Position numbers and translations under genes: made by a program. Under the pieces are notes generated by a model. The model saw only the letters and a list, made by a program, of their open reading frames with translations, ran no database searches and was not told the DNA's origin. Shown here in pieces: positions 3,805 through 15,293 of a stretch of DNA of 46,614 bases. Positions within the stretch are counted from its first letter, which is position 1, and every line of letters starts with the position of its first letter. This stretch comes from Candidatus Thorarchaeota archaeon (GTDB lineage Archaea; Asgardarchaeota; Thorarchaeia; Thorarchaeales; Thorarchaeaceae). Location of the stretch: the NCBI GenBank assembly GCA_003345545.1, contig PRDH01000024.1, positions 1 through 46,614 on the forward strand, in the 5' to 3' direction.

Positions 3805-5256
3805 ATGGCTAAGGCCCCCGATAAAGAACCAACCGATGGCGCAGATAGCAAGAGAGTCGTTGATGGTCTTCTCTCCGAGCTTGGCGTTGATGATGAAATG
3901 CGGCATGAGCTGATTCAGTCTGGACGAATGTCAAGCGATGTGATGCGTGTAGAATCAGCAACGCAGGTTCGCCACCGAATGGAGCTTGATGAAAGCATTA
4001 AGCGGCTACGCGATAGTCTCTCCCTTCTAGAGAGGAATGTTACGACTGTTGAAGGGGCAATCGATAGAATCGAGCGCGATCTTGTTCCTGTAGTCCTCTC
4101 ATTTCTTGTTGGTCTGAAGGGTAATCTCGTGAGCATGAGAGGTGATATAGTCAACAAGAGCAAGCGCAAGGCCAAGACCAATCTTCAGAGCATGTTTGTG
4201 GATGCAGAGGTTCAACCTATTGTCCAAGAGGAGTTCACGAGAGTTGAGGAATCGCTGACCTCGGGCATGTCCACGCCAATACTTGAGAAGATGCGCGACA
4301 TCACAGAAAGCATGAAGGAATCGATGAAACTCACTCTGCAGGAACTTGCTGCTTTGAAAGGCAATGTTGATGATTACACTCAAAGAGCGACGACCGAGGT
4401 TGAATTCCTCTCCACTGAACTAGGAATGAAAGCGCGCGTCGAAGTTCCAAAGGAAGTCGAAGTTCAACTGAAGCAGTTCCAGAGCACAGCCGAAGTGCTC
4501 AAACAGGAACTGAATCTAGAGAAGAAAAAGACTGAGAACCGTGAATCAGAAAATGCTGAACTGCGAAAGAATCTTGCTGAATTGAAGGTCCGAAACGATG
4601 ATCTGGAGGACACGGTCATGGGCCTTCAGGCCGCTCCAAAGGTCGACATGGCGACCCTTACTGAACTGCGACATACTGTGAAGTCACTCGAGACATCAAA
4701 TGAAGTCCTAGAACGGAAGGTTGCGGAGCTCGAGGCACTGACCACAACCGCGGAGGCAAAGGAAAAGGACTACCTCACTCAGCTCTCCCAAAGGGAGCTG
4801 GAGATTGGTGAGCTCAATACCAACATTCGACAGCTAGAGGACGATATGGGCAAGTCTGGGGCAAGGCTAGATGAAATGGAGGAACTCAGGGCTCGACTTC
4901 GCTCCTATGAGTCTGGCGACAAAGCTAGAGAGCTGGAACGCATAAAGACGGAACTGGAGCGATCCACTGCCAGCCTAGAGAGGATGACGGGTGATTTTGA
5001 GGAAACCAAATCCAAGCTGACTCATACTGAGGAAACCCTCGAGGGTTATCTGAGCCTGATGAACAGCACGGAGAAGACCAAGGCGTTCCTTATGGTAGAG
5101 GAGCATGGCGAGATGTCAATAAGGGAGATAGCTCGCTCCCTTGGAGTTGCTCCAGCCGTGGTCATGAAGTGGGCTGAGGAATTCCAAGCTCTGGGCATTG
5201 CTCGGGTAGTTGGTGGAAGTACTCTCGTGCATCGAGACCATATTAATGCAAAGTGA
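3805..5256 (+). CDS. Long coiled-coil protein with C-terminal winged-helix domain
   Basis: E/K/L-rich heptads over most of its length; C-terminal MSIREIARSLGVAPAVVMKWAEEFQALGIARV; no Walker motifs. Confidence 0.75.
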   Translation: MAKAPDKEPTDGADSKRVVDGLLSELGVDDEMRHELIQSGRMSSDVMRVESATQVRHRMELDESIKRLRDSLSLLERNVTTVEGAIDRIERDLVPVVLSFLVGLKGNLVSMRGDIVNKSKRKAKTNLQSMFVDAEVQPIVQEEFTRVEESLTSGMSTPILEKMRDITESMKESMKLTLQELAALKGNVDDYTQRATTEVEFLSTELGMKARVEVPKEVEVQLKQFQSTAEVLKQELNLEKKKTENRESENAELRKNLAELKVRNDDLEDTVMGLQAAPKVDMATLTELRHTVKSLETSNEVLERKVAELEALTTTAEAKEKDYLTQLSQRELEIGELNTNIRQLEDDMGKSGARLDEMEELRARLRSYESGDKARELERIKTELERSTASLERMTGDFEETKSKLTHTEETLEGYLSLMNSTEKTKAFLMVEEHGEMSIREIARSLGVAPAVVMKWAEEFQALGIARVVGGSTLVHRDHINAK

Positions 5257-10370: not shown

Positions 10371-10763
10371 TCAAGCACTCTGATGCAGGATTTTTCTTGC
10401 ATCTTTTGCTGTACGTTTCGCGTCTGAAAAAATGAGTCCCAGTGCTGCATTCTCCGGAGCAGTCACTGTAAGAATGTAATCCGGAGAGACAGAGATTACT
10501 AACGTCGTACCGAGGTCTCCCTGAATGATAATTGACTTGAGATCTCCCTGTCTCAATTCCTTCACAGTCTGTTCACCTGCTGCATGAATCCCCGCAACCA
10601 TTGCTGCCACAGTAACCTCCTCAGTGCCTGCATGAAAATGGCTCACGAGAGGCAGTCCCTCAACAGAAAAGATTGCCGCGCCTAGTATGGGTGATTTGTT
10701 TGACAGCTCCTTCAACATCGCCAGCAGCTTTTCCTGAATCATCATGGCGGTCTGGTCTTCCAA
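10371..10763 (-). CDS. Roadblock/LC7 (MglB/LAMTOR-like) protein
   Basis: ILGAAIFSVEGLPL.S, VAAMVA.I...GE....EL..G.L..IIIQG..G, A.LGLIF. Confidence 0.9.
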   Translation of the reverse strand: MEDQTAMMIQEKLLAMLKELSNKSPILGAAIFSVEGLPLVSHFHAGTEEVTVAAMVAGIHAAGEQTVKELRQGDLKSIIIQGDLGTTLVISVSPDYILTVTAPENAALGLIFSDAKRTAKDARKILHQSA

Positions 10764-10861: not shown

Positions 10862-11869
10862 TCAGCCAATTAGGTGTACAGATGGGACTCTATCACTATG
10901 CAATGAGATCGTGGGTAGTTTCATGACCCGTAGGACCCCCTCGGCCTCCTGCTCTAGACCTGCCTCCTTGAGCATATCCACGAACTCGAATCCTGTTGTC
11001 ACGATGACGCCTTTTACTGGCTTGCCATTTCTCATTGATTCGAGCAATTCCTGCACTGTGAATAATTTGCATTTCAGGTCAAGATCAGTATGTTTTTCGA
11101 GGTGACTCATTCCCTTCTTTGCTATTGCTCTGTTCTCTTTCTGTTCACTAGTGTAGGCTCTTCTCTTATTGATGGTTTTGAGTCTCGCTAGACCCTTCTC
11201 AATGACATCCTGCGCATTCAGGCTCTTGCCATAGAGTGTTTGAACACTCTTTGTAGTAGTCGTGACAAGCCATGCTGTTCCATACACTTCCTGATAGCGC
11301 ATGGCCTTGAGAAGTTCCGACTCGCTGAGGAGCGTCAGTGAACGATATCCCTTGTACTCAACTGATATTGTCCAATCCGGGTCTGAATGATGGACTATTA
11401 GATCTGGTGTAAGCCCTTCTCCTGTTGTCGGGACTGATGTAGTCACTTCCGGGAAGAGATGCATTATCAGGGCAAGAAATGCCTCGTGAAACATATTGTG
11501 TCTAAGGTTCCTCGCCTCCTGAGGATGTCGCAGGCCGGCATCTCTATAGAGAAGAGGCATCTCGACTCGCTGTCCGGTCTTTGCTCTGATCTCGTTTCGT
11601 GTTGTGATGCGGCCCCGAGAGTGATTCATTCTGATCAGCCTCAGGGCAGCTTCGTAACTGATGAGGTCGAACATGATTGCCCCAAGGTTTGATTTCTTGA
11701 TTGAGGATTCTTCTGAGATCCGTCGGGATGCTTCGGAGTATGCCCAGTCTAGCACTTCTTGTCCATCTTTGCCGAGAAGGCTCAATATCGAGTTCATCTT
11801 ATCACTGAGGGTGTGTCTCTTGACATAATTCCTCAGTTCGTTGGCAATTTTGACTGATGTATTAACCAA
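10862..11869 (-). CDS. PD-(D/E)XK restriction-endonuclease-fold protein with helical N-terminal region
   Basis: FHEAFL...TPDLIV......ISVEYKG...ELLKAMRY...AWLVT. Confidence 0.65.
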   Translation of the reverse strand: MVNTSVKIANELRNYVKRHTLSDKMNSILSLLGKDGQEVLDWAYSEASRRISEESSIKKSNLGAIMFDLISYEAALRLIRMNHSRGRITTRNEIRAKTGQRVEMPLLYRDAGLRHPQEARNLRHNMFHEAFLALIMHLFPEVTTSVPTTGEGLTPDLIVHHSDPDWTISVEYKGYRSLTLLSESELLKAMRYQEVYGTAWLVTTTTKSVQTLYGKSLNAQDVIEKGLARLKTINKRRAYTSEQKENRAIAKKGMSHLEKHTDLDLKCKLFTVQELLESMRNGKPVKGVIVTTGFEFVDMLKEAGLEQEAEGVLRVMKLPTISLHSDRVPSVHLIG

Positions 11870-11895
11870 TGCCTTTCTCTCTCGTCTGTGTCGTA

Positions 11896-12510
11896 TCAGC
11901 CTCTTCTGAGGATGTCCTTCGTGAGTGTGACCTCATCGCTTTCCTCATCGACCTTGACGAGGTTTGCACTTGCAAGGTCATATACAGCTTTTCGTACGAC
12001 CGCAGGCATAATGCCACTACCTGAGGCAATATTCTTCCTAGTTATCGCAGTCTTCACGTCATGCAGTGTATACAGGATCCTTGCATGAGGTTTTCCATAA
12101 AATACAGTCTCGATGAGAGTGATATAGATTGCCAGCAAATCACTGACATCGACCTTCTCTGCAAGCGCCTTCTTCTCCGCCGACGCCTCTCGGTAGAGTT
12201 CGGAGACTCTCGTAAGTTGCTGGCTGATTTCATCTAGTTCTTTCTTGAACTCATCCCGTTCCTGGCGAATTTTGTCGACCTCACCCGTTTTTGAGGCTTC
12301 TGCCTCTTTGACTTGAGTCTTGAGACTGGAGACCTCTTCGTTCAGTTGATCGAGTTTGCTCTCCGCAGCCCAGGCCTTTTCTTCTGCCTCTCTTCTGCCG
12401 GCTCTGACTTCCTCGCTTTCATTTTGCAGCGTATCCCGTTCATCCATTATCTTGACTATGGTGTTTTGAAACTCATCCAATAACTGTAACATTCTTTCTC
12501 TATCGGTCAT
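11896..12510 (-). CDS. Coiled-coil protein with C-terminal winged-helix domain
   Basis: About 120 aa of heptad repeats, then HARILY.L....ITRKNIASGSGIMPAVVRKAVYDLASANLVKVD. Start placed at ATG 12510 after GGAG. Confidence 0.8.
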   Translation of the reverse strand: MTDRERMLQLLDEFQNTIVKIMDERDTLQNESEEVRAGRREAEEKAWAAESKLDQLNEEVSSLKTQVKEAEASKTGEVDKIRQERDEFKKELDEISQQLTRVSELYREASAEKKALAEKVDVSDLLAIYITLIETVFYGKPHARILYTLHDVKTAITRKNIASGSGIMPAVVRKAVYDLASANLVKVDEESDEVTLTKDILRRG

Positions 12511-12546
12511 AGGGACGCTCCTCATCTCCTTAGTGAACAACCGGCT

Positions 12547-13692
12547 TTATATCACTTTCACATCAAGGCCGGCAGCCTTCGTTTTTAGATACTTTAGATA
12601 CAATCCCCTCAACTCGCCCAGTGGCAGACCAAACGATTTGAAAGCTTCAAGCTCTCCTTTGCGTTTCTTTCTGAGCATTGTTTCATTCTGTTTGCCAAGA
12701 ATTTCATCATTGCTGATTGCCGGAATACTCCTATTCTGCTCCGCGCACTTCAGGTCTGACTTTGTCATGGACTCAAGAGAGTGTTCAATCTCCGTCAGCA
12801 ACCCATGCCTGTTCCAGAAGTCATCTGTCGTAAGGCCAAGCAGTTTTGCCTCTGGTGTTGCCAATCCTTTGATATTCGCCAGTTCTATCGAGTTACTCTT
12901 AATCGTGGAGAAGATACGCAGCGACCAGGGCGACATGTCAACAAGCACCAAAATCGGTATCTCTTCATCTGCAAGTCTTCGTATCCACGCTCTCATGTTT
13001 CTCCCCGGCTGACCGAATAGAGAACCAACGCCAATTCTCAAGTCTTCAGGTATACCAAGTTCAATCAGATTCCTAGCCATCGCCTCTTTCTCGATGAAGA
13101 CTGCAGCATCAATGTTTATGTCATGTATCGTCACATCAAAAGGCCTGCTTGATATGAACCACCCGTATTCCCCTGCTGACGCGCAATTCAGCCTCTTTCC
13201 AGACATATCTGAGATTGTGACATCGCCATAAAACGTGCCCTTCGGCGAACTGACAACTCCGAACTCTTCGCGTGGAATAGATGCACCACCATGTCGCATA
13301 ATGCGCTCGCAGAGATTGATCATGCGATTGGTTTCATTCTGGTCAGTGATTTTCATGATGTCCTGGACATGCTTTACTTTATGCATGTAATAGAAGTCCC
13401 TGAGACTCATCGACATGTTCTGTTCTAGGTGCTCTTTGAATCGTGAGAGGCCGTACACAAGCCCCGCAACGATTTTTGCGCTCTCGACCTTTCGACCGTC
13501 AATATAGGATGGTGTTTCATCAATCGAGACGTATCCCTTGTCTTCCTGATAGTCGACGTTCTTTTTCGAGGCTCCGTAATATCCGATCTCCGGGAAGACT
13601 CCGTCTTCTACTGTTTCAGCCAGGGTATTGAGAACCTCATCGATGAGCCCAAGAACTTCTGAGGTTGCGTTTTCCGACCTAGAGTAGCTCAT
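12547..13692 (-). CDS. top6A: DNA topoisomerase VI subunit A / Spo11 family, with divergent TOPRIM motif
   Basis: LRDFYY (catalytic Tyr), DQ.E.N..I, PREEFGV....KG..YG, IEKEA, GQP....R, K.ELEA. ATGA overlap with top6B. Confidence 0.88.
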   Translation of the reverse strand: MSYSRSENATSEVLGLIDEVLNTLAETVEDGVFPEIGYYGASKKNVDYQEDKGYVSIDETPSYIDGRKVESAKIVAGLVYGLSRFKEHLEQNMSMSLRDFYYMHKVKHVQDIMKITDQNETNRMINLCERIMRHGGASIPREEFGVVSSPKGTFYGDVTISDMSGKRLNCASAGEYGWFISSRPFDVTIHDINIDAAVFIEKEAMARNLIELGIPEDLRIGVGSLFGQPGRNMRAWIRRLADEEIPILVLVDMSPWSLRIFSTIKSNSIELANIKGLATPEAKLLGLTTDDFWNRHGLLTEIEHSLESMTKSDLKCAEQNRSIPAISNDEILGKQNETMLRKKRKGELEAFKSFGLPLGELRGLYLKYLKTKAAGLDVKVI

Positions 13693-15224
13693 TCAGCATC
13701 CCCTCCTTCTCTCAGAAGACGATCAAGCCGTATATCTCTGCCAGTTGCTTTGCTTAGTGTCTCAGCTATGAACATATAGTAGGATGTAAGGCGAGTTTCG
13801 CGTTTGCTAGACTTCTGCGTTCTGTTCCGTCTTCTGAGCTTCTCACTTAGGTCCCTTAGGCAGTCCTTGAAGCCCAGTTCAATCTCTCTCCGAACAACAT
13901 CAACATCAGCAATGTACTCCTTGCCTACCGTCTTGTAGGGGATTCTGGTCGAGCAGATGTGAATAATGAACGTCAGGGGGTCTTCATGGCTTAAACCATA
14001 GTTCTTGAGGTTGAGATCTCTCACGACTCTGTACGACACATCTGACCGTTCATCATAGAGCAGAGGTATGCGGTTGGCAAACCTCACCACGGTCGCACCT
14101 GCATTTAAGCTGCCTCCGTATGCAACTCCTGTTTCAACGATGAAGGGATGGCCTTCGTGCACACATGGAGGCCTCTGTCTGAATGTTGCTAGCTCAGGAG
14201 CCAGTCTTTCCACGCCTGCAAGGAGTATCTCTTCCCCGACGGGAGACAGAGAATTCGCTGAGGGTGGTAGAAATCCGTCATAGCTCTCTATCGATTTCAT
14301 CACTCTGAGAAGTTCATCCATGGTCAGTGAATTTGGTTGTCTTTCTGAATCTAGGTGTGCGAAGGCTAAGAATTCGCTAGCCTTTGTGTTTCCTACTCTC
14401 TGGAAGGTGGTTGTAAGGAATGATTTCAGAGTCTTTGCACGTGTCATCGAAATCATGCGTCTGAGCATCTCAACATCAATTCCCTTTGGATGCGGCCTTG
14501 CGGCAACTGTGGGTTTTGGGGAGGCATGAATGACTCTATCATACCTGATGATCCCTGCATCTGGAGTTTCGAATAGGAGTGATGCATACGGCACAATAAT
14601 GGCAGTCTGAGCGAAATACTCAATGATCCGCCGCTTACTTCTGAGCCAATCTCCCTGAAGGGAAAAGGTGACCATAGTACCCCGCTCATCCTCCGACTTT
14701 GCGACCTCATGTTCATCAAGAATGACCGGCCGATTGTTCTCAATATCAAGCCGCATCTTCACCTGGTGGCCAAATGGCTCTCCTATTTGCCCCGTGACAA
14801 TTTCGATGGGCTTCTGAGTGGTCACCTGTCCGTAGAGCAGAGCAAGACTTCCTCCAAGACCGAATGTTCCCCGGCTCTGCCGATGAGTGAACTTCGTGCC
14901 AGTCAGCATCTTTCCAAGTAGTAGCGGGACTGTCTTTCGCTTCATACCTATGCCGTTGTCCTTTACCACCAGTTCGAAAATCTCGGGTCCCTGAGTCATG
15001 ATGTCATCTTTAGGACCTTCGTCTTGGCATCTGAGTAGTACTGTAATCTCCGGAAGAACGCATGCTTCTTCACATGCGTCAAGACTATTCTCAACGAGCT
15101 CCCGAACTGCAACGTAGAGGGACCGCGCTGGATTATCAAAACCCGCTATCGCTCTGTTCCTGTAGAACCATGCTGAAACTGATAGCTCTGTGATGTCGTT
15201 TGTCTGAGTACTCGGTGTGAGCAA
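13689..15224 (-). CDS. top6B: DNA topoisomerase VI subunit B (GHKL ATPase)
   Basis: RELVENSLDA, DNGIG, QSRGTFGLG, H2TH region, RFANRIPLLY, PYKTVGKE. GGAGG precedes the TTG start. Confidence 0.95.
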   Translation of the reverse strand: MLTPSTQTNDITELSVSAWFYRNRAIAGFDNPARSLYVAVRELVENSLDACEEACVLPEITVLLRCQDEGPKDDIMTQGPEIFELVVKDNGIGMKRKTVPLLLGKMLTGTKFTHRQSRGTFGLGGSLALLYGQVTTQKPIEIVTGQIGEPFGHQVKMRLDIENNRPVILDEHEVAKSEDERGTMVTFSLQGDWLRSKRRIIEYFAQTAIIVPYASLLFETPDAGIIRYDRVIHASPKPTVAARPHPKGIDVEMLRRMISMTRAKTLKSFLTTTFQRVGNTKASEFLAFAHLDSERQPNSLTMDELLRVMKSIESYDGFLPPSANSLSPVGEEILLAGVERLAPELATFRQRPPCVHEGHPFIVETGVAYGGSLNAGATVVRFANRIPLLYDERSDVSYRVVRDLNLKNYGLSHEDPLTFIIHICSTRIPYKTVGKEYIADVDVVRREIELGFKDCLRDLSEKLRRRNRTQKSSKRETRLTSYYMFIAETLSKATGRDIRLDRLLREGGDAE

Positions 15225-15293
15225 GAGCCTGCCTCCAGAGATGTCTCATGAAGGCACAGCATTGTTCTGCTATGAAGCGTGGTATTATGTCAG

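Follow-up and report, generated by a model that had tools for sequence, protein, structure and literature searches.

Archaeal topoisomerase VI (Topo VI), represented by the enzymes of M. mazei (2q2e), S. shibatae (2zbk) and M. jannaschii (1d3y), is an A2B2 type IIB enzyme encoded by adjacent, overlapping B and A genes. The B subunit combines a GHKL ATPase with a transducer domain, and the A subunit carries an RDxYY motif in its 5Y-CAP domain and a TOPRIM domain. The accessory factors of the eukaryotic Spo11 and Topo VI-like enzymes include Rec102/Rec104/Ski8, Mer2/IHO1 and Rec114-Mei4, and in plants RHL1/BIN4. Here, we analysed a cluster of four genes in which a Topo VI gene pair is followed by genes for a coiled-coil/winged-helix protein and a nuclease. 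It lies on the minus strand of a 46,614-nucleotide (nt) stretch of DNA from Candidatus Thorarchaeota archaeon (the window; assembly GCA_003345545.1, contig PRDH01000024.1, or C24), part of a 2.69-Mb metagenome-assembled genome (MAG) of 92.9% completeness. If the four genes encoded one machine, as the original prediction had proposed in the form of a DNA break, segregation or defence module, they would set an archaeal precedent for an accessory-factor-dependent Topo VI/Spo11 in relatives of the eukaryotes. Our results instead make it likely that the cluster is made up of two distinct units, both inherited vertically and located side by side since the Thorarchaeaceae ancestor. As either unit can be found in related genomes that lack the other, their adjacency probably reflects inheritance rather than a four-part machine.

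The first unit comprises top6B-3 (13689-15224) and top6A-3 (12547-13692), the genes for what would be an accessory third Topo VI of the genome (Topo VI-3). The second unit comprises the coiled-coil/winged-helix gene (11896-12510) and the gene for an Mrr-type PD-(D/E)XK nuclease (10862-11869). The co-orientation and tight packing noted originally agree with the list of open reading frames (ORFs): top6B and top6A overlap by 4 nt (13689-13692), 36 nt separate top6A from the third gene, and 26 nt lie between the third gene and the nuclease gene. The value of 36 nt applies to a start at the ATG at 12510 (MTDRERM...); the longest ORF begins at a TTG at 12540 (11896-12540). The ATG is most likely the true start, as judged from its use by the orthologues and in the ESM Atlas record. 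All four assigned gene identities were upheld by NCBIfam and Pfam scores, structure models and invariant nuclease residues. However, co-orientation and tight packing describe a longer run and not just these four genes, because the same strand continues on both sides, with an AN1 zinc-finger/M50 protease gene upstream and Roadblock/LC7 and radical SAM genes downstream in a syntenic block.

The two units differ in their distribution. The nuclease gene was found in 75 of 87 Thorarchaeales genomes, including all 24 of high quality and all 17 genera, and always as a single copy. A profile search detected it in none of 123 Asgard genomes outside the order, and, when run against 1.84 billion proteins, the same profile retrieved just 12 representatives. 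The coiled-coil gene immediately precedes the nuclease gene in each of the 20 loci inspected, among them loci from a second family of Thorarchaeales at 38-43% identity. The top6A-3 gene is present in 59 of the 87 genomes, in 17 of the 24 high-quality ones and in 12 of the 17 genera, and it is patchy even within genera, being carried by five of seven genomes of genus g22 and four of 17 of g25. Five genomes lacking it hold just two other Top6A paralogues, which are only 26-29% identical. Thus, the linkage of the downstream genes to top6AB anticipated for related genomes largely fails, as the pair is universal in the order with or without Topo VI-3.

The converse case is provided by the Atabeyarchaeia. 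Among 400 Asgard genomes, the only carriers of the top6A-3 type outside Thorarchaeales are the three Atabeyarchaeia genomes, all of one family (e.g. CP147779.1). Their Topo VI is 62-63% (A subunit) and 45-46% (B subunit) identical to Topo VI-3 and is flanked by Roadblock/Endo_dU and AAA_18 kinase/M48 peptidase genes. Homologues of the coiled-coil or the nuclease gene were not detectable in any of the three genomes. Conservation of the neighbourhood, one of the expectations raised by the original prediction, therefore has two sides: the four-gene order is kept in 52 Thorarchaeaceae genomes, but Topo VI-3 of Atabeyarchaeia stands without the downstream pair. A Roadblock/LC7 gene is found near Topo VI-3 in both groups, downstream of the nuclease gene in the window (10371-10763) and upstream of top6B in Atabeyarchaeia (L072:4260-4820). 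The Roadblock proteins of Thorarchaeaceae and Atabeyarchaeia are not close relatives (no tblastn match at 1e-3), and the shared neighbour is probably due to chance, given the many Roadblock genes in Asgard genomes.

In the 52 genomes that have top6A-3 and the nuclease gene on one contig, top6A-3 lies about 0.7-0.8 kb upstream of the nuclease gene and the coiled-coil gene occupies the interval. Most of the remaining cases are explained by contig ends. This perfect adjacency is not independent evidence of a common function because these loci also share the AN1/M50 and Roadblock genes on either side; the flanking synteny implies that every case descends from one ancestral arrangement. Moreover, nuclease identities range from 53 to 61% in genomes with top6BA and from 53 to 64% in those without, so the downstream pair appears equally conserved in either situation. 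A relaxed constraint on the pair after loss of top6BA was considered and left no such signal in the identities. Genomes without top6BA are scattered over the nuclease tree, which is poorly resolved. The sole possible exception to adjacency is a fragmented MAG, G055, in which top6A-3 and the pair are on different contigs (C98 and C372; L074 and L075). On the 2.4-kb contig that bears its top6A-3, only 78 nt remain after the gene and the sequence there is unlike the usual one, and its coiled-coil/nuclease pair sits behind 800 nt of unrelated DNA with a 172-amino-acid (aa) ORF in reverse orientation. This arrangement could reflect a strain mixture or an insertion.

The boundary between the two units bears a conserved element of its own. 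A TATA-like element (motif GATATAAAG) precedes the coiled-coil gene and is found across loci as GTGAAACTGATATAAAG 33-45 nt upstream of the start codon, with a Shine-Dalgarno-like GGAG or GAGGAG in between. In the window, the B recognition element (BRE)/TATA-like sequence GTGAAAGTGATATAAAG (12545-12561, minus strand) is located 35 nt upstream of the coiled-coil ATG and contains the stop codon of top6A (...DVKVI*). In genomes bearing top6BA, the element generally codes for the last top6A residues and the stop (...DVKLI*), and it is kept in 11 of 14 such loci (at most three mismatches; none of 500 shuffles as good). By the same measure, it persists as non-coding DNA behind the AN1/M50 gene in four of five sampled Thorarchaeaceae genera devoid of top6BA. 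In one of the genomes without an intact cassette, G054, about 50 decayed and frameshifted codons of the top6A 3′ end are left in front of the element. Since the top6A of Atabeyarchaeia likewise ends in ...VKL*, the element derives from the top6A 3′ end. From sequence and position, we infer that it serves as the promoter of the downstream pair, which would probably be expressed from this site overlapping the last top6A codons. The simplest history would place top6BA-3 in the family ancestor, followed by at least four independent deletions; the element may have survived each of them because the downstream pair depends on it. Repeated deletion also means that Topo VI-3 is dispensable. In G054 (L030:8058-8801), the genome with the freshest deletion scar, the coiled-coil gene has one in-frame stop at codon 42, in its variable N-terminal part, next to an intact nuclease gene; this could be an assembly error or early decay.

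A second element, ATAATAC-N5-TTCATAG (15270-15288, minus strand), marks the other end of the top6BA cassette. It lies 4-5 nt after the AN1/M50 stop codon and about 65 nt before the top6B start, was recognisable upstream of top6B in 12 of 12 loci inspected and is unique in the window. Its position makes it a candidate promoter or regulatory site of the cassette. A genome-wide regulon search with both upstream elements returned just one extra loose match, which was to ATAATAC-N5-TTCATAG.

As for Topo VI-3 itself, adjacent, co-oriented B and A genes are found in the window, in all orthologous loci and in Atabeyarchaeia, as in other archaea. The B subunit is a full-length Top6B that scores 531.5 bits against NCBIfam PRK04184 (cut-off 274), 422.7 bits against TIGR01052 (cut-off 380.7) and 169 bits against Pfam Topo-VIb_trans, and it also matches HATPase_c. 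The motifs ENSLD (N-box), DNGIG (DxGxG) and GTFGLGG (GxxGxG) are readable in its translation, which begins at a TTG codon preceded by GGAGG at a distance of 8 nt. The A subunit is divergent, as had been noted. It passes both Pfam domains, TOPRIM with 83 bits (cut-off 24.1) and TP6A_N with 26.2 bits, barely above the cut-off of 26, but remains below every NCBIfam equivalog cut-off (best PRK04342.1-4, 260.3 versus 424 bits). Its LRDFYY stretch provides the R-D-x-Y-Y context of the 5Y-CAP domain, with R98, Y101 and Y102 invariant across the clade and in both paralogues.

The TOPRIM domain of top6A-3 retains E201 and D252, which are invariant in the 12 aligned members of the clade. It lacks the full triad of Glu and DxD: in all 12 the second Asp is replaced by Ser in a D-(M/L)-S motif. 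Aligned with DGDPWS of M. mazei Top6A (2q2e), the window protein reads DMSPWS, and the Atabeyarchaeia orthologue, likewise without the second Asp, reads DLSPWS. In comparison with archaeal Topo VI in general, Topo VI-3 shares the Glu and the first Asp but has Ser at the second Asp and at the following Gly. The other two Top6A paralogues of the genome have DGD and DSD. According to the paper on the Spo11 core-complex structure, metal site A is formed by the Glu and the first Asp, which never vary and are both essential (PMC11746154). The second Asp of the DxD motif (Spo11 D290) is a ligand of site B that lacks strict conservation and is not needed for break formation; its exchange for Asn had little effect and that for Ala merely lowered break formation (PMC11746154). 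Thus, the DxS motif is no argument for a dead enzyme in need of a helper nuclease, because the essential Glu and first Asp are spared. The enzyme is probably active: ATPase, transducer, the catalytic Tyr/Arg and metal site A are intact, and only the site-B ligand is Ser throughout the clade. Topo VI-3, a type IIB topoisomerase of A2B2 composition in this reading, would most likely still cut and reseal DNA, perhaps with an altered metal dependence or in a specialised task.

A search for a second, canonical top6AB in the genome yielded two further pairs, on contigs C77 and C39, which brings the number of top6B-top6A pairs to three. The C77 pair is of canonical size (505 and 350 aa). The C39 pair (74572-78809; locus L050:4573-8810) is a long form with a Top6B of 672 aa and a Top6A of 740 aa, in which N-terminal helix-hairpin-helix (HHH_5) repeats are fused to the canonical core. 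The first approx. 170 residues of the C39 Top6B gave no Pfam GHKL match. Long Top6A frames of 505-739 aa also occur in five other Thorarchaeaceae genomes. In its A subunit, the window pair is the most divergent of the three: identity of A-3 to A-1 and A-2 is only 26-27%. B-3 shares 38% identity with the canonical Top6B of the same genome (B-1) and is nearer to the Top6B proteins of other Asgard families (45-49%). A related observation is that several Asgard families (f5, f14, f22 and f26) have a Top6B-like match inside ORFs of 2,300-4,300 aa, for instance G152:C1:2910365-2911933 and G175:C4:231863-233371, which suggests giant fusion proteins, or inteins, with a Top6B module.

An extra Topo VI in these archaea is not new. 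According to PMC12680538 (Nat Ecol Evol 2025), Asgard Top6A/B include a conserved copy that is sister to the eukaryotic proteins; various clades have another copy besides, and Thorarchaeia a third. There, the extra Asgard copies are placed outside the conserved Asgard/eukaryote clade and attributed to transfer, and the third Thorarchaeia copy is described as related to other archaea and without the eukaryote-like motif (PMC12680538). As far as this description goes, we infer that the window pair corresponds to the third Thorarchaeia copy, which is thus already reported. The main text of that paper was not found to cover the DxS motif, occurrence in Atabeyarchaeia, repeated deletion or the gene neighbourhood.

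A single Thorarchaeaceae module, in which a Topo VI with a weakened TOPRIM site makes or holds breaks, guided into position by the coiled-coil protein, and the nuclease takes care of end processing, in analogy to Spo11 with its accessory factors, is an unlikely alternative to two neighbouring units. Several observations speak for it and against independent units. In Thorarchaeaceae, the two units were never seen apart where the assembly permitted a check, which that of G055 did not, and the gene order is invariant in the 52 genomes. Only very short gaps separate the genes, and between top6A and the coiled-coil gene there is no T-rich, terminator-like tract; because the top6A stop codon is inside the TATA-like element and such a tract is missing, read-through co-transcription of all four genes is plausible. 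DxS replaces DxD in every member of the clade. Furthermore, top6A-3 is more conserved than top6B-3 (70-77% versus 55-66% within the family), an excess that points to a constraint left without explanation, and all four gene products would act on DNA.

On the other side, the pair is universal in the order and Topo VI-3 is not (24 versus 17 of the 24 high-quality genomes), this Topo VI type occurs in Atabeyarchaeia in the absence of the pair, and the pair is equally constrained in the presence and absence of Topo VI-3. The adjacency stems from a single ancestral arrangement within a syntenic block and shows no independent re-association, and the replaced Asp is the dispensable one (PMC11746154). 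On joint transcription, implied by the idea of one operon, the sequence points both ways: the TATA-like element that the pair keeps with and without top6BA favours an internal promoter, and the short gaps and the lack of a T-tract favour read-through, which may occur in addition to internal initiation. The resemblance to Spo11 complexes is limited to the general idea of a Top6A relative beside a coiled-coil protein and a nuclease. Unlike in those complexes, the B subunit at this locus is a full ATPase, the co-occurrence of Topo VI-3 and the downstream pair fails, and the downstream proteins have no Pfam similarity to the accessory factors. In that comparison, the third protein gave coiled-coil noise and a weak winged helix-turn-helix (wHTH) match and the fourth nothing, which is weak evidence in view of how fast such factors diverge. 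Moreover, the extra Asgard copies are reported to lie outside the clade ancestral to eukaryotic Top6A/Spo11 (PMC12680538). Taken together, these data do not support the original prediction of a four-component module, and the chance of any functional link between Topo VI-3 and the pair in Thorarchaeaceae is small. An intermediate scenario is improbable as well. There, Topo VI-3 with its DxS motif, read through into the pair, would work with the two downstream proteins as a programmed DNA-break or break-processing machine analogous to Spo11 with accessory factors, and the pair would also keep a role independent of Topo VI.

In the favoured reading of two neighbouring units, the downstream pair is a core element of Thorarchaeales. 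The coiled-coil protein has 204 aa from the ATG at 12510 and 214 aa from the TTG at 12540. Its AF2 model, with a predicted local distance difference test score (pLDDT) of 82, consists of a single helix of about 115 residues (13-127) and a wHTH domain (132-206). Conservation is confined to residues 94-214, which comprise the final third of the rod together with the head. Foldseek matched the head to the winged helices of MarR, TFE-alpha and Z-alpha proteins with E values of 3e-3 to 1e-2. Other searches (Pfam, NCBIfam, PADLOC and a profile against PDB sequences) returned mainly compositional coiled-coil matches and, in Pfam, a weak wHTH. A 483-aa protein encoded at 3805-5256 on the plus strand of the window has a similar build, a long coiled coil followed by a C-terminal wHTH with a G..PAVV.K stretch. 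Paralogy of the two proteins has no sequence support (BLASTP E 4.9). Complex prediction for the nuclease and residues 85-214 of the coiled-coil protein gave a score of 0.11, below the mark of 0.32, which argues neither for nor against an interaction.

The likeness of the wHTH head to regulators of the MarR, IclR and TFE type raises the question whether the protein is mainly a transcription regulator of its neighbourhood and the nuclease an unrelated housekeeping enzyme, so that the two would not form a functional pair. We regard this as doubtful: a short gap is all that separates the two genes in each of the 20 loci, including those of the second family at 38-43% identity, and a long coiled coil is atypical of simple repressors. 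Within the two-unit reading, the protein would rather be a rod-shaped and probably dimeric coiled coil with a DNA-binding winged-helix head that works together with an Mrr-type endonuclease with a complete active site. The pair would act jointly on DNA, combining binding or targeting with Mg-dependent cleavage, possibly in housekeeping repair, recombination or chromosome maintenance.

The nuclease gene starts with TTG and encodes an N-terminal helical domain (residues 1-110), the PD-(D/E)XK domain (about 115-305) and a short C-terminal part. E118, D156 (in TPDL) and E171-Y-K173 are invariant in 24 sequences, so the catalytic signature is complete. The AF2 model (pLDDT 89.4; predicted template modelling score 0.76) adopts a restriction-endonuclease-like fold. 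AF1548 (1y88) is the best match among solved structures, with a Z score of 9.2 and a root-mean-square deviation of 2.6 over 113 residues, followed by AspBHI, LlaBIII, Can2, FokI and Hjc; the fold matches also include 4oc8 (Z 7.6) and 4xqk (Z 7.3). The Foldseek matches are weak (all E values weaker than 1e-3), yet every one is of the restriction type, and the nearest ESM Atlas clusters carry Pfam Mrr_cat. Among curated families, none matched the nuclease itself in Pfam, including Mrr_cat, at a threshold of E 0.1, in NCBIfam or in PADLOC, and the profile search against PDB sequences came back empty. The protein shares the core fold and the E...D...ExK signature with Mrr-type nucleases such as AF1548 and the domains of LlaBIII, AspBHI and MspJI. 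In contrast to these, it carries a separate helical domain at its N terminus and is constantly paired with a coiled-coil/wHTH gene. Its own gene is single-copy and belongs to the core of one archaeal order, unlike sporadic restriction genes.

Two distant homologues from metagenomic contigs, P0249 and P0250 (loci L061 and L062), were detected by the profile with E values of 4.5e-36 and 1.8e-29. They have 305 and 291 aa, lack the first approx. 60 residues and are followed by an AAA_18/AAA_17 kinase-like gene; one of them has a weak Hjc match (E 0.01). Neither offers a trail to the pair, as their upstream genes are unlike the coiled-coil protein. A link to the Atabeyarchaeia locus was also discarded: the AAA_18 proteins are only distantly similar and Atabeyarchaeia have no P0250-like genes. 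Hjc (PF01870) was not found in the genome of the window or in 23 of 26 sampled Thorarchaeaceae and is patchy across Asgard families. A replacement of Hjc by the nuclease was nevertheless rejected in the absence of clean complementarity, since many Asgard families without the nuclease yielded no Hjc either.

The relationship of the nuclease to restriction enzymes also bears on the defence function suggested at first, which had drawn on the Top6A-like TOPRIM domain of the Wadjet protein JetD. top6A-3 is a Top6A-related TOPRIM protein like JetD but differs from it in having the catalytic Tyr of the 5Y-CAP domain and a full Top6B partner, and no JetABC genes were seen. No PADLOC model, that of JetD included, matches top6B, top6A or the nuclease. 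IMG/VR viral contigs contained no relative of top6A-3 with the patterns used. Hence, despite the Mrr-type restriction nucleases as closest relatives of the nuclease domain and the patchiness of the top6BA cassette, we consider it highly improbable that restriction-like defence or mobility explains the pair or the cluster as a whole: the pair is single-copy, universal and vertical, with identities that track taxonomy and a fixed location, neither PADLOC (nuclease and Topo VI subunits) nor IMG/VR (top6A-3, with those patterns) provides a match, and the patchiness is explained by deletions that left remnants.

In summary, the evidence points away from the one-machine idea, which spares effort on it. 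New are the clade-wide DxS motif, the Topo VI type common to Thorarchaeaceae and Atabeyarchaeia and its deletion history, as well as the order-restricted nuclease/coiled-coil pair. The Topo VI-3 clade lends itself naturally to testing the role of metal site B in type IIB enzymes, given that it is dispensable and that Ser stands at the position of the second TOPRIM Asp. The locus is also a worked example of repeated gene loss in which a putative promoter, although part of the 3′ end of the lost gene, was spared. With the uncharacterised nuclease and its coiled-coil wHTH partner, we describe a pair of genes that belongs to the core of a single Asgard order and may have a part in its DNA repair or chromosome biology.

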